A stretch of 64,000 nucleotides of DNA from a plasmid (GCF_054482525.1 NZ_JBTHVG010000004.1); one strand, 5' to 3'; positions 42,572 to 63,365 are shown, counted from the stretch's first letter. Translations and numbers: made by a program. Notes: a model not told the origin generated them from the letters alone.

Positions 42572-42780
42572 AATAATTCCTGAGCAGTTAAATCAGAATG
42601 GGATATACCGGTGCTCCGGTACAGACAGGATGATGTTTGTTTCCGGCTATACTTGCGTTACCGGAAATAAATGCCAGTGTGGCCAGGTAAATAGCCTCAT
42701 AGTTTACTGAAGGTGATTATTCCTGATACTGGCTGGTTGATGTGTCGTCAGACATAAAACGAATATGAGCGTAATCTTTA

Positions 42781-42915
42781 ACGCTCCGCGCCGAATCGAT
42801 CCATGATGGATGACTCGACGATTTATGAATCGAACGTACCGGCGCTTGTCCCTGAAACAGTTCCCGGCCCTCGTCCGGATGACCTGCAATTCAGACAGGC
42901 ACATGTGCCCGTACA
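42781..42915 (-). promoter_or_regulatory. conserved tra-region element, copy 1 (mini-ORF MDRFGAER)
   Basis: Shares a 5' core AACGCTCCGCGCCGAA-CGATCCA and a 3' block (CTGCARTTCWGACRG) with copies at 62171..62300 and 63233..63365. Confidence 0.45.
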
Positions 42916-42965
42916 CTCTTGTATCTTACTGAGTATATCAGAATTTATGTAAATTCAAATATCCT

Positions 42966-43550
42966 CTATGCCTCTTTGTTGTATTTTCCGTCAAGTATGA
43001 GCCGGGTACCATCGTAATGCATGATCAGGGCATCAAGGTACGCCGGTTTGAATTTCTTGCCGAGCCTATCTCTGGCCAGAAATGATAAACAATGATTATG
43101 TGTCATTATTACTATGTTCCTTTTATGAGATTCTCTTGCGATTGATTCAAGCGTCTTATAAAGATCATTATTGCAGTCTGATAAACTGTCCATAACGACG
43201 GGGTCTTTACCGGAGAAGAATTTTGCAGTTTGTATGGTTCTTACCGCATTGCTGGAGTAAATATCATATTCACTGAAGATTGTTGCGAACTTAATACCTT
43301 CCTGCTGTGCTTTCTCTGTACCGGTAATAGTGATTCCGCTTTTATCCGAATAGCATGGCATATCTGAACGGTCGCAACGTTCTCCATGGCGGAAAAGGAA
43401 AATAACGGTGTTATCAGCATTAATTTCTTTTGCCTGTTCTAGGGTGATATCGGGAAGCGAGCTTTTTGCTTTTGTCACTGCAGCTACCAGGAAAACAGAA
43501 AATAAAAGAATGAATGCTGTCTTTGAATAAGAAGAACGTGGTTTCATCAT
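42966..43550 (-). CDS. traG: TraG-position protein, histidine-phosphatase superfamily, secreted
   Basis: 194 aa with signal peptide and RHG catalytic motif (FLFRHGER); AT-rich; gene symbol assigned by position only. Confidence 0.55.
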   Translation of the reverse strand: MMKPRSSYSKTAFILLFSVFLVAAVTKAKSSLPDITLEQAKEINADNTVIFLFRHGERCDRSDMPCYSDKSGITITGTEKAQQEGIKFATIFSEYDIYSSNAVRTIQTAKFFSGKDPVVMDSLSDCNNDLYKTLESIARESHKRNIVIMTHNHCLSFLARDRLGKKFKPAYLDALIMHYDGTRLILDGKYNKEA

Positions 43551-43609
43551 GTTATTTAAAATGAATATAAAAATACCCCCGGGTTTAGTGCCGGGGGCGG
43601 GGACAGTAA

Positions 43610-44812
43610 TCAGAAAGTGAACTGAAGTTGTGCCATTGCACCGTAATCGTGGTCAGTTCCTACCAGGCCGGAAACATCGATATGTACGACGTCAAATGGA
43701 GAGATACCAACGCCAGCGGTGAAGGCGCTTCCGGAGTTTGATGCCATGTTCTGACGATAACCGGCACGCAATTGCGCCCATTTCCATGCGTTAAATTCAG
43801 CACCAACACTTGCAAACTGACGTTTGCTGTCAGAAGTGAAGCCACTGGCAGGAGTCAGATCAACGTCAAGAGCAGTGGTAAACAGGTCATTATGCCAGGA
43901 TACACCGGCGGTTGCCTGTGGACGAACTTTGAAGGTTTCTTTAAAGCCATTGACGACTTTAGTATCAATACTGCGTGGAATGATGTTCTGGGCAACAAGA
44001 CCGACAGTCCAGTTGTCATTCAGGTCTGTATAAGCACCAATATCGGCGTTGAATCCGTTTTTCGTGTTGTGGTACTTGTCACCGTCAAAATCGTCTTTGT
44101 CGTAATCACGAACCGTTACGTTGTAGTTAAACAGGTCCACACGCTGATATTTTGGTGTGACGCCAAGAGACCATTTTTGTCCGGCCGTTTCCAGTTCTTT
44201 GGCAAATGAAATTCCGACGTCGGTAATTACAGCTGCACGCCCGAATGCGCGTGAGGTCAGGGCATTCTTATCGACGTCGGTAATTGTTCCATTGGCAACT
44301 TTGTCCAGATAATCCAGGTCTGCATCGTTTACTTTTCCGTTTACGCTGACAGTTCCGTAAGACTTGACCATAAGGGCAAACGGCAGAGTGTCATTTGCCA
44401 TGGCTGCTACAGCTGATACACCTACCTGAGCATCTGCATTGATATTGCGGAATTCCTGCAGACGATGTTTAAGATTTGCCGCTGCCTGTTGTACGCCATG
44501 CTGGTTATCTACAGCACTGTCAAACAAATCCCAGTCATCTTTAACATCATCAGCTTTATTTGATACATCATCAGGATCAGCAACTTGTGCCCCAACAGAC
44601 GGCAGAAGAAGGCTGAAATCATCATTGCTGTTGTGCTTTGTCAGTAAAGCCGGGTTTGCCAGAGGTGCCACACCATAATGGGAAGATGCTACCCCGGTGC
44701 CACCCATTGCATCGTTACGCGCTTCAAAATATGACGTTGCTGCTGCAGCGTTAAAGGAAAATAATACAGCAGATGCAATGATGGTGCGGGTAATATGATT
44801 TTTCTTCATCAT
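43610..44812 (-). CDS. traF: TraF outer-membrane beta-barrel protein
   Basis: 400 aa, signal peptide, C-terminal aromatic residue (…QLQFTF) typical of beta-barrel OMPs. Confidence 0.65.
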   Translation of the reverse strand: MMKKNHITRTIIASAVLFSFNAAAATSYFEARNDAMGGTGVASSHYGVAPLANPALLTKHNSNDDFSLLLPSVGAQVADPDDVSNKADDVKDDWDLFDSAVDNQHGVQQAAANLKHRLQEFRNINADAQVGVSAVAAMANDTLPFALMVKSYGTVSVNGKVNDADLDYLDKVANGTITDVDKNALTSRAFGRAAVITDVGISFAKELETAGQKWSLGVTPKYQRVDLFNYNVTVRDYDKDDFDGDKYHNTKNGFNADIGAYTDLNDNWTVGLVAQNIIPRSIDTKVVNGFKETFKVRPQATAGVSWHNDLFTTALDVDLTPASGFTSDSKRQFASVGAEFNAWKWAQLRAGYRQNMASNSGSAFTAGVGISPFDVVHIDVSGLVGTDHDYGAMAQLQFTF

Positions 44813-44897
44813 TTAATTTCCTGTTTATCAGAATTTAGACAAAACAACGCTATGACACGGATGTGCCGTAAATTTTTACTTTGGTACTATCTGGTAT

Positions 44898-45722
44898 TTA
44901 CCAGGGTAATAAAGACGTATTAAATAAGCTAACAGGTAGTATTTGCCCTGTAATAAGGTTTCCGGCAAGGCCAGGTCTCAACGTAACGCGTCGCAAAGAC
45001 ATTGTTGTATTCTGCCTGGTTGTATATTCAGTTAACCATTTTCTTTTTTCATCGTTCAGAAGTGTTGGTGATAATGATAGTGCCGGATATATTACAGAGC
45101 CATTTATTTCTTTTTCCTGTCTCAATATTACCCCGCAATATTCTCTTTTCGTGTTTCCTGCGAAGGGGAAACTATGCCAGAAAATAACTTCAGTGTTGCT
45201 GCTATTATTAATAAGCATTCTGAAATTATCAGCAGTATCTGGCCATTCACCGGACAACGCTATCGGATAGTTTTCATGGCCATTCAGCCAGTCCGGATTG
45301 AGATTAAAACATTCAGCAAGATGTTCGAGAGCGTCAGCTGAAAGATAGTCTGCAAGTCTGGCCGGGTCCTGTATAACCGTGGAGCGGATATTCCATGGCG
45401 ACAGCAATGTTGCCAGTAATGGCGCATTTATATCATGCGACAGCATGATGTATTCAATTCTGCTTATTATGTTTCCTGTGGTGTTATCCGCAGGCATAAA
45501 CATATTATGAAGAGCATCCTCAAGCAGGATTCGGGTTAAATCAGCGGTGGATATGGCTAATTGTTCGCTCATTATCCCCAGAACTTCTCTTACCCCTTGT
45601 GGGTAACGGACCTGCAGAGGTGTCGGGTTTATCTGACGACCGTTGATGAGTTTTTCGCCGATTGCTTTTTTGTCCAGCGAGAGCATCATTCGGGCCGCAA
45701 TACCGGTCGTATTCAGTCTCAT
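44898..45722 (-). CDS. traE: TraE
   Basis: 274 aa, first gene of the block downstream of rci. Confidence 0.6.
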   Translation of the reverse strand: MRLNTTGIAARMMLSLDKKAIGEKLINGRQINPTPLQVRYPQGVREVLGIMSEQLAISTADLTRILLEDALHNMFMPADNTTGNIISRIEYIMLSHDINAPLLATLLSPWNIRSTVIQDPARLADYLSADALEHLAECFNLNPDWLNGHENYPIALSGEWPDTADNFRMLINNSSNTEVIFWHSFPFAGNTKREYCGVILRQEKEINGSVIYPALSLSPTLLNDEKRKWLTEYTTRQNTTMSLRRVTLRPGLAGNLITGQILPVSLFNTSLLPW

Positions 45723-45872
45723 TGTTCCTCCGACTGAAAAAGTCTTTTCAGCTCATGTGGTTATTGTATCTTCGGTGTTTTTTCTGGTGAAACGAATAAT
45801 TTCGATCATGCAGATCGAATGTGTTTGGCGAGTTGTTGCAACTCGCCTTTCTGTATGTGTTTTGAATGATGT

Positions 45873-47027
45873 TTACAGCGGGGTGCTGCCCGGGTTCAGA
45901 GGGCAAATCATAATGTAGTCAGGGTCGTTAACAGGTAACGCTCCGGGAGATGGGACACGTTCGCCTTTCTGTGCTGCAATGGCCAGTGTACGCAACAAAA
46001 CCTCACTGGCGCGGTGAACTGCTTCCTCTTTCGTTGTGGCAGTGACGTGAAGGTTATCAAAATCACCGATCTCAATACGATGCGCTTTCTGCCCATTTTC
46101 TTCATCGATGGTCGTGATATGGGCAGGATACGGCACAAACCATGCTGCCACTTTTTGTGTCTGCCGCCGGCGGGCATCAAGCTTACTGACCAGTTGCCAT
46201 GCACGAAGATGAGTATACCGTTTCAGCATATTCATGGAACGATGTCCTGATATTGCAGCAATCTCCATTACATTCAGGCTACCCAGTTCGAAGAAGCGGC
46301 TTATTGCTTCATGCCGTAGATCGTGAAAATGCAGGTCCTCGATGCGAAGTCGTTGTGTGGCTATTCTCCAGGCATTTTTAAAGCCGGATGCGGTGTAATC
46401 AAAAACATTGCCGTGGAGATTAACGGGCATCATCTGAAGAAAGTTACGGGCACGTCTGGACAGAGGAACATCCCGTGAGTGACCGTTTTTGGTTTCAGGT
46501 AAATGAGCCACACCGTGGCGCAAATCAATGTGTTCCCAACGTAAGGCCAGTATTTCGCCCTGCCGCATGGCTGTTTCAAGGGCAAGATGGAAAATGACAT
46601 ACAACATCAGATTTTTTTCGCGGAAATAGCGAGAAAGGCGACGTTCTTCTGAAGACGTTAGCCGACGATCTCGTCCGGAGGATACTTTCGGCTTGCGAAC
46701 CAGTTCAACCGGGTTAGTACGACAGGTTCCCCATTCAACACGAGCAATATTGAACAGAGATGACAGAAGGGCGAGTTCAAGACGTACAGTATTACCTGTA
46801 ATGGCTTTACCCGTTCGGGGGTTGATTTCTGCTAAACGAACGTCTCTGTATGTAGCAATATCAACGGTTGTTATTTCGTCCATATTCCGAAGGGCAATGG
46901 GATATCGCTTGATAACATTGCTCCGGTAAAACTCCTGTTGATGCCCTTTCTTGTGAACAGAAACTGTTTTCAGGTACTTATCCAGTGCGCGTGACAGGGA
47001 CATTTTACGGATGCGTGGAGACGGCAT
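45873..47027 (-). CDS. rci: Rci shufflon-specific tyrosine recombinase
   Basis: 384 aa from the internal Met ([20 protein letters not shown]...); integrase-family catalytic residues (R...HDLRH...Y); adjacent to sfx repeats. Confidence 0.9.
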
Positions 47028-47077
47028 GCTAACCTCAAAAGAGGAAAAAATAATGCCAACAATCATTCTCTGCAAGC

Positions 47078-49014
47078 GTGCCAATCCGGTACCTGGCGTA
47101 AAAGCAATTCTGGTAGTACGGTGATAACTGGTCGTATAGCAAATGGTCAGCAAATACCGCTGCCAACAGGATTTTCTGCCAGTCAGTGCTCATGGAGTGT
47201 GAGCAATGCAGAAAACCCTCAAGGTTGGAAGCCGAATTACTTTGCTGGATCAGTTGCAACTTATGATGCAAATCGAATTGTTAAATGTGGTTTTTATGAT
47301 GAATACAATTTCCATAAAGGGACATTTAGAGCTGATTTAACCGGAAAATGTAGTTATGTCGTCGCGTGTCAGAACTGAGATTAAATTGCTGGCGCTGCTG
47401 GCCTACGTGCCAATCCGGTACCTGGAGAAAGGTAGGATCTGGTGAGCTTCAAATTGCTACAGCACAGGCGACAGGTTGGCGCTTTCCTGGAGCAACAGCT
47501 ACCTGTCCAACTGGAAAACGTGTTACAGGTGGCGGCGGAATATGCACCTCACGAACTGGTTACATATGGCTTACCAGGTCATTCCCATCAGCCAATAACT
47601 CATGGTCGGCTGCGTGCGATACAACCGAAGATCAGAATGGTTCAATAACTGTATATGCCATTTGCCAATAAGCTATTTCAAGCAAGTAATCTTCATAAAG
47701 TAGGACGAATACTGTGTGTAGTTTTTGGCTTGCCAAGTCATCTCGCCGTTAGAGTCAGGCATGTCAATAGGAACGACTTCTGTTTCTGCCATTTCACGCC
47801 CGTCAATACGATAGGTGTTAATACACAGTTTAAACCTCCCTAAGACCTGTGTGTTTTTGGGATATAACGTAAATGTTTTTATATTCGTCCATATCGACGC
47901 TGATGATGATTTCCAGGTACCGGATTGGCACTGGCCTACGTGCCAATCCGGTACCTGGGGCGCTCCTAAAACTCAATTCACAACGCAGACCTACAACATA
48001 GCTAAAAACACTCGTAATTTAAGGCTCGGGGTCCATGCATATTGCTCATGGACTTACCTGAATGGCTCACCCTTTGGTGGTTTTCAACAGGTATATTCCG
48101 ACCAAAACAACGTTTGGTATGTGAGTAATTATGCTTGGGGAAATTATGAGTCTGGTGGGACCATATCAGTCACATGCCTCAATCTTCCTGGTGCTGGAGT
48201 TTAATTAAAGGGGCAACAGTAGGCATCGACATGTTCCTCATCAACACCATCACCAATACCGTACATGCGTGTTCCAGTCATAATGTATCCAGTCGGACAT
48301 TGAATCGGCTTGTAATAGATCGAACCACCACTCTTACCGCCGATAAAGTGATTCATTGCTACGGATGATTTGTACCAATTACATGCTGAGTAATTAATTT
48401 TATTACCCCCTGACCACCGACCGGATTGGCACGTAGGCCAGTGCCAATCCGGTACGTGGAAGACTTCTGGTTCGCTCAATGGTTCTTACACAAACTTAGG
48501 TTCACATAGAGGTTCATTCTCAGGGCGGAATTCAGGGGGCAGTACATTGTTTATTTATGCATCTGGAGGTAATGGAGGATCTGCCGGAGGTGCATGTGCA
48601 AATACATCCCGACTGCAGGGATATGTTGGTGGGACGCTAATTAGCGTGAATGCCAGCAATAACCCTGCATATGGAAAAACAGCCTTTATCAGCTTTGCTG
48701 TACCTGCAGGTACTTCCTATCAGATAACATCCTATCCAACAGAAAATACATCATGTGGTGCCGGGGTATTTTCAGTATTTGGATATCAAACTTAATTGAG
48801 CGTTACACACGACGCAATACAACCTGTCTTATGCTCGTATTTGTACCATTTACGTGAACCTGCTGGGCTCTCAACTACCTGGCAGTAGTGGGCATCCTCT
48901 GCGTTGCCCATTCTGGCAATGGCACAGAAGTCGAATTGCCCCAGATAACCTGTGGTGGAAAGCTGAGTAACTTTGAGTTTTCCACCTATTGTCCTCCACG
49001 TACCGGATTGGCAC
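47078..49014. mobile_element. shufflon multiple-inversion region with seven 19 bp sfx sites
   Basis: sfx core GTGCCAATCCGGTACNTGG at about 47078, 47408, 47940, 48441 (one orientation) and about 47913, 48413, 48996 (inverted); each encodes C-Q-S-G-T/R-W and is followed by alternative PilV C-terminal reading frames on both strands. Confidence 0.9.
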
Positions 49015-50096
49015 GAAAGTATTGCCCCTGTATTATCGCGGCCTACAAGGCCGTTAGGCGAACATGATGCGCCAGCAACGGCAGTTCTTTCCAGTTGTAA
49101 GTATTCACCAGTATAAAGGCGACCATCAGCACGAACAGTACCGCCTTTCACCTGACCGCCGGTATAGATGCCCTTGTTGTTTACACTTCGAACCCATGAT
49201 CCGTCGGACATATAAAATCCGCCACCGTGAGTTTCATTGAGCCAGCCTTTGCTGTTACGAGTAATTAACCAACCATTATTACTTCTGATATCACCGCCAG
49301 CGGTGACATTTACGTCAAAGTTTCCGCTATTGCCTTTTACCTGACCGCTGAAAGTGCCATTTACACCATTCACATTGCCGCTGAAATTACCAGTCTGGGC
49401 ATTTACTGCCCCAATGTTATTCAGGTTATTTGATCCCATATCAATGGCCGTGTGCATTTTGTTTAAGTCAGGGCGACCATTGACCTGGAATCTGTAAAGA
49501 CGATCAGTGTCCTCTGCTGCACCACTAAGTTCATCTGTCGATAACAGTACGGCAATATGCCCGTTACCGCTTTTGGCACCATAATTACTTAAAGCTACTG
49601 ACCAGGAACGTAATGCACCTGTGGCTGTTTTGCCGTCCTGGATATATCCACCAAGACCAGTGGTAATATCCTTAGCCATCTGGATAAGTGCTTTCACTGG
49701 ATAAGGGGTGCCACCACTGGATACAACCATTGCCTGTAGTAATTCCGGGTTTTGGGTGTTTCGAACTACATATGCCTGTAACCGCTGCCCCTCGCTGTTT
49801 GTCTCAGTAAAGCCGCTGGACAAAAAGCCGGTATTTTTCAGCATGGTTGTCGTGATAACGGCAGGGGTTGTTGTGGTACTACTGGCCTGGAGAGTTGTGT
49901 AGTTTTTCCCTATATAAGAGCGGGCTGCACTGGCCCAGTTGCTGACAAGACGAGCTTCAGCCTGCCAACCTTTGGTTTTTAAATAGTCCTGCCATATGCC
50001 TGCACCCCAGGCAACTATGATCATAACAATCAATAAAGCCGCGCCAATTTCCAGCGATGCCCAGCCTCGGTCATATTTTTTCATCAGATTACCCAT
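48792..50096 (-). CDS. pilV: PilV thin-pilus adhesin (minor type IV prepilin) with currently joined shufflon C-terminal segment
   Basis: 434 aa; prepilin-like N-terminus; reading frame crosses the sfx at about 48996..49014 (…SCQSGTWRT…) into the adjacent invertible segment. Confidence 0.85.
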
Positions 50097-50767
50097 AGTG
50101 GTTGATAAAGATTATCCAGTAGCAAAAGGACATGGCCAAGACACAGCCATGGACCCAGTGGGCCTTCTTTATGTCCTTTTATGCACCATGTTGAATGCCA
50201 TAAGACAAATCCTCCTGCGCCCAGCAACACACTCCATATGGCGTTATATAGCCCTGACCATGCGGTAATACCTGCAATAAGCCACAGGTCTCCTGTGCCA
50301 ATATTAAGACGATGGCGGTTAACCAGTTTATGCAGACAGAATAAGACAATTGCGGCAGAGACAATTTCTGTTGCACGGAGCCACCATATATCAGTTGTGA
50401 TTTGTGATAATATTCCAGCGATTAAAAAACGCCTGGTGAATGTACCCGGTAAGAGGCCTGTTAGTGCATCCGTTACTGCCATTTGCAGCATGAACGAAAG
50501 AATAAGAACAGCATGAATACGGTAGATAAGTGGGGATGACGATAAAATAATTAATGCCACAGCTATACTATATAGCCATATTCCTGACAGAACTGCAGTG
50601 TGTGTCTTATACCAGAGATGTTCTGTATCAGATAAAAAATAACGAACTCTGAATAACAGAGTTCGTCCAATAATGGAAAATATGAACATCAATGGGAGGA
50701 TATAAACAGGGGAGAGACTTATGCCTACGATTGTCTGCATTGTCTGCCTCCCTGCCCGGGAAGGCAT
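50084..50767 (-). CDS. pilU: PilU prepilin peptidase
   Basis: 227 aa polytopic membrane protein; operon position. Confidence 0.75.
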
Positions 50768-51285: not shown

Positions 51286-51294
51286 TAAAACTCC

Positions 51295-51909: not shown

Positions 51910-51925
51910 AAATACCTCGTTTTAT

Positions 51926-53011: not shown

Positions 53012-53023
53012 GTTGTTCTCCTG

Positions 53024-54577: not shown

Positions 54578-54587
54578 ATCACATCAC

Positions 54588-55040: not shown

Positions 55041-56322
55041 ATATATGACCTTCTGAGGAATAACTGAAAGTACCGCCGTTTAATTCAAAATGGATATTGC
55101 TCAGACGAACGCCGGTATCCTGAAATAAAGGGAACAACTCATCAGGATTTACAGGCGTTGATAAACTGAACTGATATTCTTTCCATTTCTGAACAGGGGC
55201 TGGTTCACCATCGTTACCTGGTAATGGTTCCTGTATGGCTATTTCATTAATGGCCGGCGTTAACTGTTTTTTCTGAAACCACGTGAACACCCGCATCAGT
55301 TGTTCTGAGGGGGCAGGGACTGCCTCATCCCTGCGGGGCAGGGAAGGCAGTGGCCGGGTTACAGAAGCCAGGCGTGCACCATCTTTAAGGTTAAAGTCAG
55401 GAATAACATTAAAGATTTCTTTGCTTCTTGCCAGAAAGCCTTCAATAGTTCCTCCTGGCTGTCGTTCGTAAATCAGTGTGAATGTCTCGGGAGTACATGT
55501 TCCACCGGTAAGTTTCCAGCCTTCTAGCGCGACCGGTGATGGTTTTCGAAGGTCCGCGCAGGCTTTCAGAAAATCACTGATTACAGGTTGTGACGCCCAT
55601 GGATGCGGGAGCTCCGGTGGTGGTTCGGGCTTTTTAAACTGTAATCTTGCCCGTGCAGCTATCTCCTCGGCGGTCGGTCCTACATCAGGCTCTGGCTGAG
55701 TCATCCAGAATACTGTGCCTGCGCCGGCTGCTACTAAAAACAGTACGGCAGGAAGTGTGAATTTGCTGCGATTGCCGACAGTAAGTTTGCAACGGCGGAG
55801 GTCTGCTGATGATAACCGGGTAATAATACTTTCCCAGTTATCAGGATGTTCCAGAGACGATACAACCTGCCATTTTTCGGGGGGCTCTTCGTTCATCGCC
55901 AGAAAAAGGCTGACCTTTTGGGCAACGTCGGCATCATTTCCTGATAAGTCAGCCATAACGGCAGGCTGGCCATTAATGGAAGCAAGGAATAAGAGCTCCT
56001 TATCGCTGTACCGGAAGACACCGTATCCATTTCTGACCCATGAGCAGAAAGCCAGTGCCAGGGAAAAATAATGATTGCGTTCTGGCCTGGTCAGTATTCC
56101 TGTGCCGGTAAGGCGGCTGATCTCTCCACGGGAATTTCTGCTGCCTACAGTCACTTTCAGGGAGGTAAGCCGTCTGGGTTTTACATGAGACTTGTGTTTA
56201 TGATGTGAGGGGACGCGCTGTTTTTTTACGACAGGAGTCCATTTAAGACAGGCAGCCCACACGCGATGATTTACTTTAGGATCTGCGAGAAGCACTACCG
56301 GGTTGATATCTTCATCAGCCAT
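55027..56322 (-). CDS. pilO: PilO
   Basis: 431 aa; operon position. Confidence 0.65.
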   Translation of the reverse strand: MADEDINPVVLLADPKVNHRVWAACLKWTPVVKKQRVPSHHKHKSHVKPRRLTSLKVTVGSRNSRGEISRLTGTGILTRPERNHYFSLALAFCSWVRNGYGVFRYSDKELLFLASINGQPAVMADLSGNDADVAQKVSLFLAMNEEPPEKWQVVSSLEHPDNWESIITRLSSADLRRCKLTVGNRSKFTLPAVLFLVAAGAGTVFWMTQPEPDVGPTAEEIAARARLQFKKPEPPPELPHPWASQPVISDFLKACADLRKPSPVALEGWKLTGGTCTPETFTLIYERQPGGTIEGFLARSKEIFNVIPDFNLKDGARLASVTRPLPSLPRRDEAVPAPSEQLMRVFTWFQKKQLTPAINEIAIQEPLPGNDGEPAPVQKWKEYQFSLSTPVNPDELFPLFQDTGVRLSNIHFELNGGTFSYSSEGHIYASR

Positions 56323-57997
56323 TATTGCCTCCTGACGGGAAAGTCGGGGTAATGATGATCACAAGCGTGCTGCGTTCATTTTTCCCGGTTTGTGAACCAC
56401 CAAATAATGGATTTGCTGGCGTAAACGTACCGGCTTTACTTGTCGTCGTATTGTTCTGATCGAAACCAGTAACGACAAGTGATTGCCCTTCTTTCAGATT
56501 GACCTTCTGGCTCAGTGAACGCAGTTTGGTATATGGCATTTCGATGTAACTGTTTCCGTCTTTTGACGTAAAGCTACGGATAGTCGGGGGATCAGACAGA
56601 TTAAAGTTCATCTGCAACTGGAGATTGCCTGTTTTCTGAATTAAAGGCAGCAGGGTCATATTGAATCCAGTGGTGATCATGCCCGGTGTTAATGTTGTTG
56701 TTGCCCCTACATCCGTAGTCGTAGTTGTTGCTGACTGGGCGACGTAAACTGTCTGATCTGCCATCTGGATAGGTACCGGCGTCAGGTTTGTGACCGTGCT
56801 TTCTTGTGAAGTTACAACGCTGACATCGCCTTGTTCACTCAGTGCTTTAATCAGAAGGCTGGAACCGCTGAATTTGGCGGCATTCCCTGTTGCCGTATCC
56901 AGAATTGATACGCCTGCAGATGTAGCGCCTGTAAAATCTCCGCTTGCATTGTTCAACGTTGCTCCGGCGGAATGTAGCGATTTGTAAACAAGGTTCCAGT
57001 CCAGACCGAACTGCTCGTTTCTGGTATTGCTGACGCTCAGAACCTGTACGTTCAGGGCTACCTGGCGGTTCATAATACTGTTTTGTTCGTCCACATATCG
57101 TGCGACGGCTTCCTGGACAGCAGGAGTATCAGTGACTGTTAGCGTTGAGCTCGATGCAGATAACCAGTAACGGCCTTTTTCTGGTGTCAGCATCGCTTCA
57201 ATAGTTTTCCGGATGTCTTCATACAGGTCGTATTCCTGACCGACGGTTGTGCTCTGAGAGGACGTAGCATCACCGGATGCTGAGTTATCCTGGCCTCCTG
57301 TTGCCCCCATTGTGCTTGTTGAGCCAGAGCTGACGCTGGAACTGCTGCTGGTTTTGGTGTTCAGCATATGAAGTGGATACGTTCTGGTTTCAGTCAGATA
57401 GAATACAATCCGACCATTATCCATGCGCCAGTACAGACCGCTTCGGCTGGCCATCAAATCCAGAAGACCATTGATATCTCCCTGCCACATGAGGTTATTC
57501 AGCGTTAATGGCTGAGTGGAGGTAGTCATTGTTGTGCTGCCCAGGCTGCTTAACGGCAGACGACCATTTTCATCAGGTGCTGGTAGTGTCCCAGTCATCT
57601 GGCGGGTAGCGCCTCCTTCAAGAGTTGAATTGGCTGCGTCAGGGGTGATGATTACGGGGATGCCGCATACGGCAGTAATACGTTGCCCCAGTTCCTGTAG
57701 AGTGATCTCTCCTTTTCTTGCCTGCGTGATGTAGCAGGCCGGAGCTGTTTGTTTTTTCTCTCTTGATACCTGAGCGACCGGAACAGGGTTTATCCATTGA
57801 TTATCGAGCCAGGTAAGAGCCTGTGATTTGCGGGCAGAAAGGGCTGATACCTTTTCCCGTGCATGTGCTGAGTCCTCCTGTGCTTTTTTCTGCATTTTAT
57901 TGATTTCGCTGAAAGTACATCCGGAGATGGAAAGAGCGACGGCGATCATGCAGGGGAGCACCGCCAGCTTCATTGAACGCTGGTGTGATTTTTTCAT
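56315..57997 (-). CDS. pilN: PilN secretin-like lipoprotein
   Basis: 560 aa, lipoprotein signal (ISGCT), Ser/Thr-rich region and secretin-like C-terminal domain. Confidence 0.75.
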   Translation of the reverse strand: MKKSHQRSMKLAVLPCMIAVALSISGCTFSEINKMQKKAQEDSAHAREKVSALSARKSQALTWLDNQWINPVPVAQVSREKKQTAPACYITQARKGEITLQELGQRITAVCGIPVIITPDAANSTLEGGATRQMTGTLPAPDENGRLPLSSLGSTTMTTSTQPLTLNNLMWQGDINGLLDLMASRSGLYWRMDNGRIVFYLTETRTYPLHMLNTKTSSSSSVSSGSTSTMGATGGQDNSASGDATSSQSTTVGQEYDLYEDIRKTIEAMLTPEKGRYWLSASSSTLTVTDTPAVQEAVARYVDEQNSIMNRQVALNVQVLSVSNTRNEQFGLDWNLVYKSLHSAGATLNNASGDFTGATSAGVSILDTATGNAAKFSGSSLLIKALSEQGDVSVVTSQESTVTNLTPVPIQMADQTVYVAQSATTTTTDVGATTTLTPGMITTGFNMTLLPLIQKTGNLQLQMNFNLSDPPTIRSFTSKDGNSYIEMPYTKLRSLSQKVNLKEGQSLVVTGFDQNNTTTSKAGTFTPANPLFGGSQTGKNERSTLVIIITPTFPSGGNNG

Positions 57998-58010
57998 GAA
58001 TATATCCAGA

Positions 58011-58448
58011 TTAGTTAACGTAGACGACAGAACCAGCAGTAATGCCTGCCGGGGGTGTCAGACCGGTTGCAGTTCCTGATAGCCAGGTGAGTTGCCCGTT
58101 TTGGAAGATCCCTATTAGTGCAGAACCACGACTTTTTGAACGCAAAGTTTCAACAAGTCCTGGTTGTTCAGGCATCCATACCCACAGACGTCCCTGTTGT
58201 AACTGATGTTTAATTCGGGAGTCCGGAGTGACAGGGAGAGCCAGTTTATCTGAAGAAATTACTCCGTCCTGCTGGCCTGATACGTATCTGATATCATTGA
58301 TTCTGTTAGCAATCATTAGTATCTGACTTGCCCATACAGACGCACTTGCATATTGCTGGGCGTTCGTGGTTTCAGACATCTGCTGATTCTGGTAGCTTCC
58401 AGTGATAATCAGAATGGTCAGGCCGACGGCCATGACCAGCCATCCCAT
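58011..58448 (-). CDS. pilM: PilM
   Basis: 145 aa; operon position. Confidence 0.6.
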   Translation of the reverse strand: MGWLVMAVGLTILIITGSYQNQQMSETTNAQQYASASVWASQILMIANRINDIRYVSGQQDGVISSDKLALPVTPDSRIKHQLQQGRLWVWMPEQPGLVETLRSKSRGSALIGIFQNGQLTWLSGTATGLTPPAGITAGSVVYVN

Positions 58449-59515
58449 TAGCGACCATCCCTTGTATCAGAAACTGTAATGATGCACTGCATGCGGGAGG
58501 CCTGTGCGTATAAAGGTTTTTGCGCGGTCCGATATAACTCAAATACCTGCTCCATGGCTGATTCAAATGATCCCCGGAACATCAAAGGCGCATCAAGACG
58601 GTAATCGGTTACAGAAAGTGGCCATATGACCATCCAGTGCGTTGATGCCATGCTTTCGCATTTTGTTTCTTCTGCCCACTTAATAATGTTTTCCCTTAAT
58701 GTAGTGCCTGCCGGCGCACGCCACTCTTTACCCTGAGATACCGGTTTGACAGGTGTCCCGGTCATGAGTGGGATAGACTTGACTGTGGAGCCGGTCGGAG
58801 TCGGGATTGCAGCGGGCGTAGACGGAGATACGCTGTTTCCCCTGAATGGGTTTCGTGGTTTGTTCTGGCTATTTGCTGTCGTTGAAGACTCCGGGGAAGT
58901 GGATGTGGTTACCATGGCTGCTGGCGAGATAGTGGTTGCCGTGTCCTGTGCCGGTGCAGTAGCCGATGTTGTGACGGTCAACGTTTTATTATCCCAGTCC
59001 AGATGGCCCCAGAGGTGTTGTTCTTCCAGCAACCGGTTCAGAGAACGGGTCCACTGATCATTGGCAGACCATGAAACCAGTTTGGTATTCAGTTTGGGCG
59101 TGGCTGCATTCTCTTGTCTGAATTTCCATCCTTCCGGTAGTAATGTTTTTATCCACTGACTGACGGTCCGGTTACGGGCCGTCGGCGATAGTGTTACAGG
59201 GGCGCTACCAGGCTTGCCTGTAATGATTAACCGGGAGAAATTCTGACTTATTGTTGGTGAAGGTAACGGTCGGGATTCGCTTACTGGCTGTGCTGTTTTT
59301 ACTGTCTCTGGCACGCTGACTCTCGGGGGCGGAGTTATTTTAGGTGGAGAAAGTCGTTGTTGCGTAAGTGCCAGGACGCCAGCACTCTCACTGATTTGTC
59401 CGTCAACAAAAACCAGAGCAGGCGTATCTGATGGTGCCACGTTATTGCCGCCGGAAATTCCGGCACAGCCGGACAATAATGACGGCAGTATAAGTGTCAG
59501 ACAGTTTTTTTTCAT
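58448..59515 (-). CDS. pilL: PilL lipoprotein
   Basis: 355 aa with lipoprotein signal (LSGCAG). Confidence 0.65.
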   Translation of the reverse strand: MKKNCLTLILPSLLSGCAGISGGNNVAPSDTPALVFVDGQISESAGVLALTQQRLSPPKITPPPRVSVPETVKTAQPVSESRPLPSPTISQNFSRLIITGKPGSAPVTLSPTARNRTVSQWIKTLLPEGWKFRQENAATPKLNTKLVSWSANDQWTRSLNRLLEEQHLWGHLDWDNKTLTVTTSATAPAQDTATTISPAAMVTTSTSPESSTTANSQNKPRNPFRGNSVSPSTPAAIPTPTGSTVKSIPLMTGTPVKPVSQGKEWRAPAGTTLRENIIKWAEETKCESMASTHWMVIWPLSVTDYRLDAPLMFRGSFESAMEQVFELYRTAQKPLYAQASRMQCIITVSDTRDGR

Positions 59516-59548
59516 AACGGAGACTCCGTGTTCGTATATACGAGTTTG

Positions 59549-60142
59549 TTAATTGATGTGAGGCGGCTGGAGAGGACGAATGACGACTGTCATTCCGTCC
59601 GAATGCAAATGCGGGAAAGACCACTGAAATAAGAGATATATAAAAGGAATTGATAATTTTTCGTACAGACTTGTTTTCCGTGGGTATGTAATAACTGAAA
59701 AACTCAAATCATAAGATTTCAGTCTCTTTATAAGTTTATTTATTCTTGCTGGAGTAAAGAGATGTGAATGCATGACAATGATTTCATCATTATTAATTGC
59801 TTTTGATATCAGAGAAAGCAATACATCCCAGTGTTTCCTCATTGACTTCGGGCAACGTGTGTCAGCATAGGGGCTAAGATGTATAGTTGATTTCTTGCTT
59901 CCCTTTTTCTTCTTCACAAAGAATGTGAAGTCGTATTTAGATGCAGACCTTACAATAAGAAGTACACATCTGAAAAGTAGTGGGAAAATGCAAATCACAA
60001 CCACCACACAGAAATATAACATATAAGGCAATGATAAGTTGTCAGTGTATGGATAACGTAAGTATTGCCATGGGGTAGTGATGTACAGACAAAGCGTACA
60101 CCAAAGCAACCAGAGATATAATGGTACGTTATTATTTTTCAT
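59549..60142 (-). CDS. pilK: PilK
   Basis: 197 aa AT-rich membrane protein; operon position. Confidence 0.55.
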   Translation of the reverse strand: MKNNNVPLYLWLLWCTLCLYITTPWQYLRYPYTDNLSLPYMLYFCVVVVICIFPLLFRCVLLIVRSASKYDFTFFVKKKKGSKKSTIHLSPYADTRCPKSMRKHWDVLLSLISKAINNDEIIVMHSHLFTPARINKLIKRLKSYDLSFSVITYPRKTSLYEKLSIPFIYLLFQWSFPHLHSDGMTVVIRPLQPPHIN

Positions 60143-60266
60143 GTTGGCTGAGGCAGGCGACTAAAATAACAGACTAAGGAGGATTAACTGTTTAATTCTT
60201 TGGAACAAAAAAATGCAGTTCCTGATCATCACACACCATTGAATAAACATTTTGCTTCGGTTGCGT

Positions 60267-60521
60267 TCATGATAGCCAGTCCTGTAGATGCTGATGGCGG
60301 GAGCTGCTGCCCTTGTGCCAGCGGCAGTGGCTGCCGGGAGCACGCTCCAGTCGGAACAGAAATCGGTTGTCGCGTAGTACCACCACGAGACAGTTATCCG
60401 GCGTGCAGAAACGTCGGGCAAGCTCATCGGGGTCTGTCGGTGTTTTCGTTGAAAACAGCCTGCGTTTGCAGTGTGCGTCGACGACCAGTATTTGCAGTCG
60501 TCCGGGATGTTGCTGTGGCAT
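60267..60521 (-). CDS. pilJ: pil operon small protein (pilJ by position, about 84 aa)
   Basis: Internal Met (MPQQHPGRLQILVVD...); naming by order only. Confidence 0.4.
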   Translation of the reverse strand: MPQQHPGRLQILVVDAHCKRRLFSTKTPTDPDELARRFCTPDNCLVVVLRDNRFLFRLERAPGSHCRWHKGSSSRHQHLQDWLS

Positions 60522-60692
60522 CAAAGACTCCTTCCGGAACGGGAAAAGAAGCAGCTGTACCGTCATAACTGCACGTACCGGTTGCGAAAAAACGGCACAA
60601 GCGAGTAGTGACAGAAAGAATGTCGGAAACGGCAGGAAGGGCGGTACAGGCTGCGAAGACTGGAAACGGGGTATGCCGGGGATTACACATCC

Positions 60693-61376
60693 TCAGTGTA
60701 ATGTGATAGTCGTCTGCTCCTGTGTTGCACCCCAGACATCTTCTGGCAAGCTGGGCAGCCCGATAAATAGGGTGTGAAAGAGGGTTTCTCTGCGTTCGAT
60801 CCCGAATTGATGTTCGTATCCTCTCACCACCTGAAATCCTTCGTCGGAGAATATTAACTCTGCCGTTTCCAGAAGCTGCATAGTTTTGCGGTGTAGTGGA
60901 GTGATCAGCTGCAACGTAACTGGTGCCCTCATATCGCCTGTCGGTAGAAAACACTCTTCGGTGCGACTTAGTTGTAGCAGATGGCGTTTCCCGGAACAGG
61001 CCCGTTCAATGGATTCATTGAACACCCTCTCAGGCCATGGGCAGACATAAGTGCGCCAGCCTGCTTTCTGTAATTTACCCAGCGCAGCCCGAAAACGAAA
61101 CAACGGACATTCCCCGACAGTGGCAGAGCTGAGAAAGAGCGTATTCAGCGTTCCGATGATGGGAATATTGCGATCTTTTTCGGTCAATGCTTTTAACGCC
61201 ATGATTTCGCCAGGGAGACTACTGAACTCAGGATGTCTGCTGGCACCAGAAAGCCATTCAAGCAGGTAATGCCGTAATCCGGTTTCACTGGTTATATTGT
61301 GGTTTTCCTGTGCCGTTTTCAGGGCATTCAGTGCACACCAGAGCAACTGGCGCACGGGATGTTCTGTCGTGGTCAT
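60693..61376 (-). CDS. pilI: first gene of the pil operon (pilI by position, 227 aa)
   Basis: Clean ORF upstream of the pil block; naming by order only. Confidence 0.45.
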   Translation of the reverse strand: MTTTEHPVRQLLWCALNALKTAQENHNITSETGLRHYLLEWLSGASRHPEFSSLPGEIMALKALTEKDRNIPIIGTLNTLFLSSATVGECPLFRFRAALGKLQKAGWRTYVCPWPERVFNESIERACSGKRHLLQLSRTEECFLPTGDMRAPVTLQLITPLHRKTMQLLETAELIFSDEGFQVVRGYEHQFGIERRETLFHTLFIGLPSLPEDVWGATQEQTTITLH

Positions 61377-61588
61377 GCGAATGTCCTACTGTGAGATGAA
61401 AAGAAGACCGGTATCCGTTCTCTCCGCCACACGTGATGGCACGGGCCGGCCTTTGATAAAACGAATCAATACTCTGGGGTGAAGCCTTTTATTTCTTTCG
61501 CCATTAAGAAATACACGGTTCCATCAAAAGACAGGGGGAGTCCATGGTGGGGATGGCTTCGTGCAGGCTTCACTCCGGAATATTCTCT

Positions 61589-61625
61589 TGAATTGAAAAA
61601 AGCCCGGCCCGAAGGCCGGGAAATA
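61589..61625 (-). terminator. rho-independent terminator downstream of the NusG-like gene
   Basis: Minus-strand read: cccggccttcgggccgggc followed by ttttttc. Confidence 0.6.
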
Positions 61626-61629
61626 CTGG

Positions 61630-62163
61630 CTATGGGATGTTTACAAGGCGCTCCATAAAGCCGTGATGTTCGGCATTTGATACCAGTTCCAGGAGCAGGG
61701 ATATCCTCGACTCAGGCTGGAGAGTATTTTCCATTCTGAGGAGATACTGATATTGTGCTTTTGTCAGCCATATGCTGGAAGCCGCATTCAGCTCTTCCCT
61801 GGCTCCCGGATTTAGCACAGGGTCCGGGTAAATCTTCATTAATCCATCAACAATATCTTTATTGACGGGTTTTATTTCACCGCCAAACTTCACGAAATCA
61901 ATGAAGGCGCTATGGCGACGTAATGCCGATACTGGTTGAATGTCAAAATTAGCCAGAATAAAAAAGTACCCTGGAAAAATAGCGAATATTCTTTCACGGT
62001 AACAGCACCTGGAGTCTGCCCGTCTTATCTTTCTTGTTATTAATGGAGTCCATGGTACGACGTTTTGCTCATTCAGCCATGAGAATAAAGATTCTCTGTT
62101 TTTGCCGGCTGTATTATATTGCGCAAGATACCAGTTCCGGTTATTCAGGTGTTCTATATTCAC
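61630..62163 (-). CDS. NusG/RfaH-family transcription antiterminator paralog (tra regulator; TraC-like by position)
   Basis: N-terminal NGN-like region (NWYLAQYN...FPGYFFILANFD) comparable to RfaH; no ATG at the N-terminus; likely GTG start at 62163 five nt after the mini-ORF stop. Confidence 0.6.
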   Translation of the reverse strand: MNIEHLNNRNWYLAQYNTAGKNRESLFSWLNEQNVVPWTPLITRKIRRADSRCCYRERIFAIFPGYFFILANFDIQPVSALRRHSAFIDFVKFGGEIKPVNKDIVDGLMKIYPDPVLNPGAREELNAASSIWLTKAQYQYLLRMENTLQPESRISLLLELVSNAEHHGFMERLVNIP

Positions 62164-62170
62164 GAAGTTC

Positions 62171-62300
62171 AACGCTCCGCGCAAAACCGATCCATGATGG
62201 ACGATTTTGCGATGTCAGGCGAATATGCTAAATCATATGTCTGAAGCAGTGTCCAGCCCATATCTGGATAAACTGCAGTTCTGACAGGCATATAACCAGC
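62171..62300 (-). promoter_or_regulatory. conserved tra-region element, copy 2 (mini-ORF MDRFCAER ends 5 nt before the NusG-like start)
   Basis: Same 5' core and 3' block as copies 1 and 3. Confidence 0.5.
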
Positions 62301-62604
62301 AGACTCTAGTACGTTCTGTATCGGTGATTTGGCGAACTCACAGATAAAGAACGGCTAAGCACTAATATCAGCAATACAGTGGCACAGTATTGTGATACGC
62401 GAAATAAAACATCAGCACGTCAGTTCAGAGTAAGGTCGCCATATATCGGGCATGAGCCAGATACAAATAATTGGGACACCGTCTGAAGTGATTTGCTTTA
62501 TTAAAGTAACTTGTGCTTGGTGTTTATGTTTATCAATTTGGGATCGCCTGTAAAGTGCAAAATGCAATTTCCATGAAAGTGTCCCCTTTAATGGGGACAC
62601 CTGT

Positions 62605-62913
62605 TCACATTTTTTCGTTTTCTTTAGCTGTATTGCTAATCATGAAAACGAACGTTCGCATCAGCACAGCAGAGCGAAGTGCATCATATCCTTCCAGATT
62701 TAAGTTCTTCAGGCTTCGCTTCAGGTAGGTTCGTACCGTTTCGGGAGAAAGCCGACAGTTCTGAGCAATGGCGTCGTAAGGAACACCCATTGCGTAAAAA
62801 ACGCAGACTTTAAGCTGGTTTGTTGATAGCTCGGGAAACATGCCTTCCAACAGAGTGATGGCCGGGAGTTTCTGTATCAGTTGAGGTGACATAGCAAAGG
62901 TCTCCGATGACAA
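62605..62913 (-). CDS. LuxR/FixJ-type HTH transcriptional regulator (TraB-like by position)
   Basis: 102 aa with C-terminal HTH (LSPETVRTYLKRSLKNL). Confidence 0.6.
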   Translation of the reverse strand: MSSETFAMSPQLIQKLPAITLLEGMFPELSTNQLKVCVFYAMGVPYDAIAQNCRLSPETVRTYLKRSLKNLNLEGYDALRSAVLMRTFVFMISNTAKENEKM

Positions 62914-63232
62914 CTAAAAACGCTATCACTGAGTTCCTACGCTCATTGGTGATAGCCCAGACGGGGGTAGGAATACCGGCGTCATCGGAAACCGGCCAGG
63001 CTAATGCCTGCCCCGCCTGAGCTACCATAGATGACGACAAGAAATACAAGTTCCTGTCTTTATGGTATGGCAAAAAACGACGCCAAATGAAGAAATTAAC
63101 TTCTGCGCCGACGATGACTACGCGGGTTCCTACGCCCGATCACAGTTTTGCCTGTGACCAGTAAAGGGTACTTAGTATAACGCACCGAGTCAACTAACAG
63201 CTTAAAAAACATACAAAAAAGCGTCAAAACTT

Positions 63233-63365
63233 AACGCTCCGCGCCGAAGCGATCCAGGCGTGATGCTTCTGCTTTGTGGCGTTCGAACATGCTGGTCCAT
63301 ATGCACGAAACGGTGTCTGACCCTCGTCCAGACAATCCGCAGTTCTGACGAACATATGAACAAAT
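63233..63365 (-). promoter_or_regulatory. conserved tra-region element, copy 3
   Basis: Same 5' core (AACGCTCCGCGCCGAAGCGATCCA) and 3' block (CCGCAGTTCTGACGAACATAT); mini-ORF frame is preserved but begins with CTG. Confidence 0.45.

Follow-up and report, generated by a model that had tools for sequence, protein, structure and literature searches.

A threefold structured leader RNA with an ops-like core in an IncI1 plasmid: a candidate loading site for the RfaH-like paralog TraB

In this study, an element of 165–190 nt, read in the tra sense, was found in exactly three copies (c1, c2 and c3) in an IncI1/Iγ plasmid, of which a stretch of 64,000 nucleotides (the window) was analysed. The element is a structured sense-strand RNA, and this leader probably serves as an undescribed loading site for the plasmid's own anti-terminator, by which the transfer genes are switched on. 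The best explanation, to which we give an even chance, is that the element is the transcribed, cis-acting leader RNA of the TraB regulon, which loads TraB and was duplicated to three operon heads. traB and traC have been known since 1993 as essential activators of transfer, and to our knowledge their cis target has never been identified. Reviews still rank plasmid NusG paralogs as awaiting functional assessment. No description of the element was found in the literature searched. The copies and the presumed partner gene were located as follows.

42770 to 42932, minus strand: copy c1, with helices P1-P2-P3 and the ops-like core and without hairpin P0; flanked in the gene annotation by a traG-like gene (42966-43550) on one side and traH (42113-42571) on the other
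62161 to 62352, minus strand: copy c2, with P0, P1-P2, P3 and the core; its end lies 5 nt before the traB GTG at 62163
63223 to 63413, minus strand: copy c3, with P0, P1-P2, P3 and the core; upstream of a C4-like RNA/Hft module and traA
61630 to 62163, minus strand: traB, an RfaH-like NusG paralog and the presumed trans-acting partner of the element

An earlier note on this DNA had placed three copies of a shared leader module in the tra regulatory regions. Repeat search (direct repeats, family D3) and alignment A1 (mean column identity 75%) confirmed the three places, and the module itself was supported; its secondary structure, P0, the close match of its core to ops and the ancestral traB copy were all absent from that account. 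c2 and c3 also reached further 5' than first noted because of the extra hairpin P0. The covariance model R1 gave 154.1 bits for c1 (E 3.8e-41), 145.1 bits for c2 and 151.9 bits for c3, with E values from 1e-38 to 4e-41, scores that are no independent test since the three copies were in the R1 training alignment. An R1 scan of the window and the remainder of the same plasmid revealed no fourth copy. Pairwise identity was 60–66% overall, 58–64% outside the 3' core and 81–88% within it, which indicated old duplicates under selection rather than recent repeats; the core was kept though no ORF follows c1 or c3. c1 was at least 99% identical in 1353 of the 1412 plasmid records having a match, and the c2/c3 region was present in 1482 records.

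The element was compared with 10 other (non-IncI1) MPF_I plasmids, whose TraB was 51–64% identical. All ten carried one copy only, 0–11 nt before the traB start, as found by nhmmer, R1 and alignment; the whole plasmid was scanned for one IncK2/Z plasmid. The element adjoined the rep region in every plasmid examined. The traB copy (the c2 position) is ancestral, and c1 and c3 are IncI1-specific duplicates.

The RNA fold was investigated with alignment A5 of 13 sequences. The common fold had 39 base pairs, 88.5% of the cells were standard pairs, and compensatory changes on both sides occurred in 22 of the 39 pairs. Covariation was 0.437, against 0.240±0.018 in shuffles (none of 500 as high) and 0.125 at most in slid controls. 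Cells with G:U numbered 73 and cells with A:C only 11, which assigned the fold to the tra-sense strand. A5 had been adjusted to the model, but alignments made with MAFFT only (A2 and A4) yielded the same P1 and P2, and RNAalifold, run independently, recovered both of these helices together with the apical half of P3. The fold of the c1 RNA had z = -2.76. P1-P2 was a long stem with covariation, interrupted by the conserved internal loop UCAGAACU and capped by an apical hairpin that varied, and ACAAGAAT was the 5' strand of helix P1. Helix P3 had 10 pairs, 5 of them with compensatory changes, and was 84.6% paired.

62183 to 62208, minus strand: helix P3 of c2, AAAATCGTCCA/TGGATCGGTTTT
42793-42816 (c1) and 63246-63269 (c3), minus strand: the equivalents of helix P3

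Compensatory changes in favour of one fold on one strand mark the element as a structured cis-regulatory RNA in the general sense. A search of the three copies against Rfam 15 (including JUMPstart, PK-repZ and C4) gave no match at gathering score, and nothing credible up to E of 10; the best, Guanidine-III, reached 15.4 bits where the gathering score is 36.

The 8-codon ORF M/L-D-R-F-G/C-A-E-R could be read intact in all three IncI1 copies, with a CTG start in c3, stop-to-stop changes and third-position changes, and its translation could in principle regulate the downstream genes. Its stop in c2 was confirmed to lie 5 nt before the annotated traB GTG at 62163. Outside IncI1 the ORF was not conserved. 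Of the 10 other plasmids, 7 had no start codon. Those of Salmonella, Apirhabdus and Serratia have GGG in place of ATG, and the IncK2/Z core has a 1-nt deletion with a frameshift and no ATG. The stop was lost in the Pectobacterium versatile, Enterobacter and Lelliottia plasmids, and in Pectobacterium the mini-ORF was confirmed to be continuous in frame with traB. The seemingly synonymous third-position variation was base-pair covariation with the 5' strand of P3. A leader peptide, which the earlier note had suggested, or a translational attenuator was rejected on these grounds and is barely credible.

The exact 12-mer GCGCGGAGCGTT was confined on the minus strand to the three copies in a 12-mer search.

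42780 to 42791, minus strand: ops-like core of c1, GCGCGGAGCGTT, a GC-G-G-A-GC mini-hairpin followed by GT
62171 to 62182, minus strand: ops-like core of c2, GCGCGGAGCGTT, with a GGAG 11 nt before the GTG, possibly the traB Shine-Dalgarno sequence
63233 to 63244, minus strand: ops-like core of c3, GCGCGGAGCGTT

GCGCGGAGCGTT is the ops signal of RfaH, GGCGGTAGCGTG, without its T6, a likeness that was recognised after the fact. With the published anatomy of ops as reference (PMC5995543), the two agreed at all positions from G2 to T11, T6 alone being missing. The core, nGCGG-AGCGTT, consequently departs from the 12-nt ops consensus, and canonical ops GGCGGTAGnnTG was found nowhere in the window with up to one mismatch. 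The consensus of the 13 sequences was G-C-G-(G/A/AG)-A-G-C-N-T; AGC-N-T was kept in all 13, and the loop was G, A or AG. In all 13, GC-G-(G/A/AG)-A-GC is compatible with a non-template mini-hairpin, whose form in ops is a C3:G8 pair with loop G4-A7, the loop bases being exposed. At ops, RNA polymerase pauses at T11, so that the factor has time to load. From the end of P3 to the position equivalent to ops T11 the distance was 11–12 nt, which together with the conserved AGC-N-T would suit the geometry of a pause.

The resemblance to ops/RfaH extended beyond the core. Both sites lie in the leaders of long, horizontally acquired operons, occur more than once per replicon, have an RfaH-like NusG paralog as cognate factor and share G-C-G-G-(T)-A-G-C-G-T, in which a GC stem is followed by a closing position (G/A) and by AG-nn-T. 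In contrast to ops, the element's core lacks the flipped T6 that RfaH reads specifically, has a 2-nt AG loop in Serratia plasmids and a single A in Enterobacter plasmids, lies within a conserved RNA structure of about 150 nt and directly adjoins the start codon of the gene for the factor itself.

TraB is the presumed cognate RfaH-like NusG paralog. It matched the Pfam NusG NGN domain, and it matched NCBIfam RfaH over the full length with E 7.7e-11, under the curated cut-off. Its best PDB matches were all RfaH-named: 9ik0 (E 5e-12, N-terminal NGN domain only) and E. coli RfaH (E 4e-4). Chain 9ik0 is probably IncX3 PrfaH, an identity that we assume. The ops-contact residues of RfaH, K10, H20, R23, Q24, N70, T72 and R73, corresponded to T, W, E, Q, R, H and S in TraB, as taken by hand from the HMMER alignment; these differences from RfaH fit a different loop specificity. 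The AlphaFold model of TraB was poor (pLDDT 59.6, C-terminal domain below 50), and RfaH-like autoinhibition could not be read from it.

IncX3 PrfaH, of the ActX family, has an ops-like site at -42 to -25 in the prfaH 5' UTR (PMC11880322). It resembles the present case as a plasmid-encoded RfaH-like activator that is essential for conjugation and autoregulatory, with a site in its own 5' UTR and a predicted non-template hairpin. It differs in that its sequence TCGGGGTCATCCGAG is unrelated, with a 3-bp stem and a 6-nt loop, that IncX3 has one site and no associated structured RNA described, and that the match of the TraB family to 9ik0 is restricted to the NGN domain. The processive-antitermination RNAs of LoaP (leader hairpin), lambda (nut boxB) and HK022 (put), together with EAR, are likewise structured RNAs in the leaders of long operons, with a specialised NusG-type factor beside or downstream of the RNA, and P0, like boxB and the LoaP hairpin, has a conserved loop on a free stem. 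The element, however, has no sequence or Rfam similarity to any of them, its architecture is P0, a long P1-P2 stem and P3, and its partner is putative.

The copies might themselves be an activator-dependent promoter module, with CCGCCAA and ACAAGAAT as DNA sites by which TraA, TraC or TraB fires three promoters. The 5' blocks are conserved in sequence and roughly 23 nt apart, and one sigma-70-like sequence lies just upstream of c1.

42932 to 42958, minus strand: candidate sigma-70 promoter TTGAAT-15 nt-TATACT, directly 5' of c1 P1

It was the single match in the window, where 0.03 were expected; its 15-nt spacing is suboptimal, and it would start a transcript about 7 nt before P1. A sigma-70 scan found no promoter inside c1, c2 or c3, so that -35 and -10 hexamers at a spacing of 16–18 nt were absent from the copies. 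Published traB::lacZ constructs reaching to window positions 62502 and 62550 included the whole of c2 and gave no expression in a plasmid-free host; expression required a further 54 bp upstream (62551-62604), and TraA in trans did not activate constructs with c2 alone. c2 is therefore a transcribed leader downstream of the promoter. These assays were run without TraB or TraC, which leaves room for a TraBC-dependent promoter. Against such a module, ACAAGAAT is a covarying P1 strand and CCGCC a covarying hairpin loop, single-strand features with many G:U pairs, and the element is retained in IncK2/Z and Salmonella-type plasmids, where traA is absent. The supposed -10 block was the 5' strand of P1. 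The promoter reading of the earlier note was not borne out, and a promoter module is improbable.

Hairpin P0 was present in c2 and c3 and absent in c1.

62313 to 62352, minus strand: hairpin P0 of c2, loop GUUCGCCAAA, from the fold
63384 to 63413, minus strand: hairpin P0 of c3, loop CCCGCCAA, stem an 11-bp inverted repeat, z = -6.3

The P0 stems were unrelated, and the apical loop was conserved in all 12 leaders having P0: CCGCCAA or CGCCAA in 8 and CCGCC(U/A) in the other 4. CCGCCAA is the exact complement of UUGGCGG, loop I of the repZ leader (rep mRNA), and all examinable rep leaders among the plasmids with the element carried CUUGGCGG. The P0 loop is the loop motif of the Inc antisense RNA; judged by its letters, P0 would qualify as an Inc/CopA-type hairpin, with a loop complementary to rep mRNA UUGGCG. 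In replicons of the I complex and of IncFII type, the pseudoknot of the repZ leader (Rfam PK-repZ) and the Inc antisense RNA share with the element the loop pair UUGGCG(G)/(C)CGCCAA and a GGCG beside the ribosome-binding site. The polarity is reversed, with the CGCC loop of the element upstream and GGCG near the ribosome-binding site; the overall fold differs, PK-repZ gave no match, and pairing of P0 with rep is putative.

These features suit a post-transcriptional riboregulator, in which the leader would control traB translation or attenuation by RNA–RNA pairing like the neighbouring repZ leader. The P0 loop could pair over a long range, as a pseudoknot, with GGCG/GCGGAG beside the Shine-Dalgarno sequence of traB, or it could form a kissing complex with UUGGCGG in the rep mRNA loop. 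Alternatively, an Inc-type antisense RNA, whose loop is identical to that of P0, could bind the core. TraB would in these cases act elsewhere. The GGAG in the cores of traB copies, which in Salmonella-type plasmids lies 5 nt before the traB ATG, could simply be a Shine-Dalgarno sequence. Hft::Tn mutants just downstream of c3 have about twice the plasmid copy number (PMC4288162). Duplexes of loop and core are possible at -6 to -12 kcal/mol, but they barely beat shuffles (mean z = -0.8), and no covariation between the P0 loop and the core was found. The core is perfectly kept in c1 despite the missing P0, c1 and c3 offer no ORF for translational control, and the close copy of ops in the core is left unexplained. 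A riboregulator is a minority view and rather unlikely. Somewhat less likely still is a new class of structured regulatory RNA with functions beyond an ops-like DNA signal, with P0 as an antisense mimic pairing with rep UUGGCGG or traB GGCG/GGAG and P1-P2 as a ligand for TraB and/or the orphan-fold TraC.

Loading of TraB was the best fit among the options of the earlier note, which had proposed a loading site for the NusG paralog. The conservation, position, fold and strand of the element, the ops likeness of its core and the RfaH-like character of TraB were established here; pausing, TraB binding and antitermination are inferred. In its ancestral form the element would be the 5' leader of traB, whose product is needed for transfer. 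Duplication in IncI1/Iγ would have placed copies ahead of a further two transcription units, the C4-RNA/traA module (c3) and traH (c1). RNA polymerase would pause 11–12 nt past P3, and the core hairpin would be read by TraB, which would bind the polymerase. There is precedent in IncX3 PrfaH, whose own 5' UTR contains the ops-like hairpin of the non-template strand to which it binds (PMC11880322). The modified polymerase would resist Rho, NusG and the terminator-like hairpins following c1 and c3, and it may also couple to ribosomes.

63218 to 63240, minus strand: terminator-like hairpin and U-run at c3, GGAGCGUUAAGUUUUGACGCUUU UUUGUAUGUUUUUU, its 5' arm overlapping the c3 core
42767 to 42786, minus strand: weaker terminator-like hairpin at c1, GAGCGU...ACGCUC and then AUAUUCGUUUU, overlapping the c1 core

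Both hairpins are weak as terminators (z about 0). The long pil/tra operons would thereby be expressed, and with one of the sites ahead of traB the circuit would be a positive feedback loop. At least some of the function must lie at the RNA level, since a 12-nt DNA signal cannot explain about 150 nt of RNA structure and the P0 loop.

ESBL and AmpC resistance is carried to a large extent by IncI1 plasmids and their relatives in the I complex. With a 12-nt core and an RNA fold at three operon heads, the question of the TraB cis target becomes directly approachable, and Rfam may gain a new RNA family from the fold. If TraB loading is true, the core would represent a third natural specificity in the ops/RfaH recognition code, with a single-base or AG loop instead of GT, and the positive feedback behind "superspreader" derepression would be explained. 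Recruitment of TraB by RNA plus DNA would, if true, combine the modes of RfaH and LoaP. The P0 loop also suggests a possible link between transfer and replication control; its pairing, if true, would physically link transcription of the transfer regulon to the copy-number control network.

The window matched E. coli plasmid pAMSC6 (NZ_CP031111.1; typed as IncI-gamma/K1, MOBP and MPF_I) at 100% identity. All transfer genes of the region were carried on the minus strand. The three copies of the element (c1, c2 and c3) and the features around them, read in the tra direction, were as follows.

63885, plus strand: rep region with PK-repZ
63916-63922: loop I (UUGGCGG) of the repZ leader, within Rfam PK-repZ, 500 nt from the element
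between the rep region and c3: GATC-rich spacer
63223-63413, minus strand: c3, 3' of the GATC-rich spacer and followed by a C4-like RNA
63119-63171, minus strand: a1b1-like, matching c4-a1b1 targets below threshold (32.9 bits)
62945-63032, minus strand: C4 antisense RNA (Rfam C4, 77.5 bits)
near 62895-62915, minus strand: traA ribosome-binding site
62605-62892, minus strand: traA, encoding a LuxR/sigma-region-4-like HTH protein
62161-62352, minus strand: c2
61630-62163, minus strand: traB, after c2
60693-61376, minus strand: traC, after traB
after traC and before c1, minus strand: pil genes, rci with the shufflon, and traEFG
42770-42932, minus strand: c1, followed by traH and later genes

Transfer requires both traB and traC. 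Searches with TraC found neither a family match nor an informative fold match.

The repetition reported in the earlier note was confirmed. The repeat search recovered the three copies as one family (D3) with 75% mean column identity over ~200 nt in a MAFFT alignment, and within the window the 12-mer GCGCGGAGCGTT was present at these copies only. The copies scored 145–154 bits with a covariance model whose source alignment contained them; this model detected no fourth copy in the window or in the remaining 31.6 kb of the plasmid. Each copy was near-invariant across ~1400 IncI1-type plasmid records. An exact-pattern scan of 100,044 genomes returned IncI1-like contigs only, plus two matches that are probably due to chance. 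Because pairwise identity among the copies was only 60–66% overall versus 81–88% in the 3' core, they are old paralogs and not a recent duplication. Other repeats in the window included a ~290-nt duplication outside the tra regulatory region (3769-4054 and 6635-6926, spacing ~2870 nt, 87–96% identity; families D4, D6, D7 and D17). At 17292-17449, 18713-18870 and 19495-19582 lay two sok antitoxin RNAs, which share 92% identity (family D1), and a match to AgrB antisense RNA.

TraB, the RfaH-like NusG paralog, had homologues in 3439 plasmid records by tblastn. Loci were compared from ten lineages with TraB 51–64% identical to the window protein: IncK2/Z, Enterobacter pOP-I, Lelliottia, two Pectobacterium plasmids, Salmonella Inverness, Salmonella Rubislaw, Apirhabdus (locus identical to a Hafnia plasmid) and two Serratia plasmids. 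By nhmmer and the covariance model, all ten held exactly one copy, always ending at the traB start codon; for IncK2/Z the scan covered the whole plasmid. No additional copies were found near traH, trb or nik in other plasmids, nor in the rest of the window's plasmid. Extra copies were present in all five IncI1-like loci. Since the single copy lies at the traB start in 10/10 other lineages, the traB leader is the ancestral element. Copies c1 and c3 are duplications, and among the plasmids compared only the IncI1/Iγ ones carried them. No TraB relatives were found in viral contigs. The possibility that the copies are relics of a repeat or mobile element was ruled out by their syntenic position in all plasmids and by purifying selection on the structure. 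The finding is real and non-trivial.

Alignment and folding showed the element to be a folded RNA. With MAFFT alignments as input (7 or 13 sequences), RNAalifold gave the same long helix P1, whose enclosed internal loop UCAGAACU is conserved, together with a variable apical hairpin and the short helix P2 (GCAG/CUGY); hairpin P3 and a 4-bp helix P4 appeared additionally in the 7-sequence alignment. In A5, a model-guided alignment of 13 distinct sequences with 39 pairs, 88.5% of cells were standard-paired and 22 pairs were changed on both sides (64 cells). Compensatory changes occurred in 15/21 P1 pairs and 5/10 P3 pairs. The covariation of A5, which is fitted to the model, was 0.437 versus 0.240±0.018 in 500 shuffles, none of which reached it, and at most 0.125 with partners slid by 1–3 columns. 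The same P1 and P2 emerged when RNAalifold was run independently on A5, as well as from the MAFFT-only alignments. Among paired cells, 73 were G:U or U:G versus 11 A:C or C:A, which places the fold on the tra-sense strand. Because of its length, the fold forms in RNA. Folded alone, c1, c2 and c3 each adopted the shared shape (z = -2.8, -3.0 and -1.1). The element matched no known RNA family in Rfam. A Guanidine-III similarity in c1 (42841-42901, minus strand) scored 15.4 bits (gathering score 36; E 0.69). It rests on CCGGACGAGG...CAGGGACAAG, occurs in c1 only and was taken as chance.

The conserved 8-codon mini-ORF (M/L-D-R-F-G/C-A-E-R) proposed in the earlier note as a possible leader peptide was contradicted by the other plasmids. 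At this site IncK2/Z has GGGGATCGATTTT-CGCGGAGCGTT, lacking the ATG and carrying a 1-nt deletion that shifts the frame, and the Salmonella, Apirhabdus and Serratia plasmids have GGGGATCGGTTCG..., also without ATG. In Pectobacterium versatile the stop is lost and the frame continues into traB. The codon changes that read as synonymous (CGA/CGG/CGC/CAA and TTC/TTT) make up the 3' strand of P3, whose strands covary (GAGTC/GATTC, AAATCG/CGGTTT, GAAGC/GCTTC and GAATT/AATTC). A leader peptide was rejected on these comparative data, and the mini-ORF is an artefact of the conserved helix.

The hairpin P0 was located ~25 nt upstream of P1 in c2, c3 and 10/10 other leaders, and was absent in c1. Its stems had no common sequence (c3 TTGTTACACAA/TTGTGTAACAA, Enterobacter GATCCTTAAGTAT/ACTTAAGGATC, Apirhabdus AGAACAT/GTGTTCT), and its loop was conserved as (C)CGCC(A/U)(A/U). 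Loop I of the repZ leader has the motif UUGGCGG, to which CCGCCAA of P0 is exactly complementary. In antisense control of I-complex and IncFII plasmids, UUGGCG is reportedly the motif of the target loop (work attributed to Asano and Mizobuchi, 1998). P0 and the Inc antisense RNA thus share the same loop. CUUGGCGG was found in the rep leader of every tra-leader plasmid whose rep leader was examinable. Intramolecular pairing between P0 and the core was energetically possible and no better than in shuffles (mean z = -0.8). TTGGCGG partners were not enriched in the window, with 7 found versus 9.9 expected. One TTGGCGG complementary to the P0 loop lies on the tra-sense strand within traB (61880-61886, minus strand), ~280 nt into the gene.

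The suggestion that the copies are a shared promoter module was not supported for c2. Poidevin et al. 2018 reported no significant expression from traB::lacZ constructs starting at 62502 and 62550 in a plasmid-free host, even with TraA in trans. Mapping of their primers onto the window showed that both silent constructs include all of c2 with P0. Adding 62551-62604 gave traB expression, which was stimulated by TraA (Poidevin et al. 2018). No sigma-70 promoter was found inside c1, c2 or c3 by scan. Since the c2-containing constructs are silent and 62551-62604 is needed, the traB promoter lies upstream of c2, which is a transcribed leader and not a self-sufficient promoter. An Frpo-like single-stranded-DNA promoter was thought unlikely, since the element abuts the traB start codon in the last-transferred region. 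A perfect 22-bp palindrome GTGTCCCCATTAAAGGGGACAC lies within 62551-62604 (62579-62600), 5 nt after the traA stop; it is possibly a lux-box-like TraA operator or a terminator, and a comparable palindrome follows traA in Pectobacterium (locus L002, ~19755-19780).

Copy c1 may have its own promoter, with the candidate TTGAAT-15 nt-TATACT ending at 42932. Copy c3 lies behind the same GATC-rich spacer that, in the two traA-lacking plasmids compared by eye (IncK2/Z and Salmonella Inverness), comes directly before the traB leader. GATC sites are densest in the window at 63447-63592, between the rep region and c3 (7 per 200 nt vs a mean of 0.54), and several of them are embedded in (A)ACGATC(T). In IncK2/Z (L007 300-580) and Salmonella Inverness (L009 19640-19790), similar ACGATC repeats are found ahead of the traB leader. 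The cluster may serve the main tra promoter as a control region, Dam-sensitive or iteron-like.

The region published as Hft (high-frequency transfer) in pESBL (NC_018659.1 35394-35663) mapped exactly to a phage-P1 immI-like module at 62915-63184 (minus strand). Inspection by eye paired GGUUUCCGAUG, the C4 loop, with CAUCGGAGACC, the ribosome-binding site of traA. Such a module would explain the ~50-fold derepression of traA that follows Tn insertions or the drd11 X2 mutation in Hft. The word antisense does not occur in the Hft papers, and no paper linking Hft to C4 was found in the literature searched.

The RfaH loading signal ops is G1 G2 C3 G4 G5 T6 A7 G8 C9 G10 T11 G12; its non-template hairpin has a C3:G8 pair and a G4-A7 loop, with T6 flipped into the RfaH pocket H20, R23, Q24 and R73 (PMC5995543). 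The IncI1 core C G C G G - A G C G T T is the same as ops G2 to T11 with T6 absent, and the pattern across 13 sequences was GC-G-(G / A / AG)-A-GC-N-T. The sequence d(GCGNAGC), associated with Hirao and colleagues, is said to be a classic, exceptionally stable DNA mini-hairpin. No canonical ops with ≤1 mismatch was found in the window. The claim of Liu et al. 2019 of an ops element in the pTF2 tra promoter region was not reproduced. P3 ends 11–12 nt before the T11-equivalent position, a spacing that would fit the geometry of a hairpin-stabilised pause.

TraB resembled RfaH in having an NGN domain and in matching NCBIfam RfaH over its full length (E 7.7e-11, below the curated cut-off). Its best PDB matches were all RfaH-named: 9ik0 (E 5e-12), probably IncX3 PrfaH (an assumed identity), and E. 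coli RfaH (E 4e-4). In an alignment of TraB with RfaH from the PDB, read by hand, the TraB consensus has T, W, E, Q, R, H and S, respectively, at the ops-contact residues K10, H20, R23, Q24, N70, T72 and R73 of RfaH. Because of these differences, the loop specificity of TraB is expected to differ from that of RfaH. The AlphaFold model of TraB was of too low quality to show which state the C-terminal domain adopts.

Among the functions first suggested, a loading site for the NusG paralog was the best supported by conservation, position, fold, strand, ops likeness and the RfaH-like TraB. The leader would be transcribed and RNA polymerase would pause after P3; the non-template core would then form a mini-hairpin on which TraB loads, and the modified polymerase would read through the sequence downstream. 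In c1 and c3 a terminator-like hairpin comes next, with GAGCGU of the core as its 5' arm and then a U-run, and it would be the read-through target. Since traB directly follows c2, the target there would be traB itself, giving positive feedback. A precedent is IncX3 PrfaH: this plasmid-borne RfaH-like activator binds a non-template hairpin, similar to ops, in the 5' UTR of its own gene. No paper describing a TraB target or this leader was found in the literature searched. Loading of TraB leaves ~150 nt of conserved RNA structure unaccounted for. On these comparisons, the element is best interpreted as a structured RNA leader without prior description that carries an ops-type site for loading a specialised NusG paralog.
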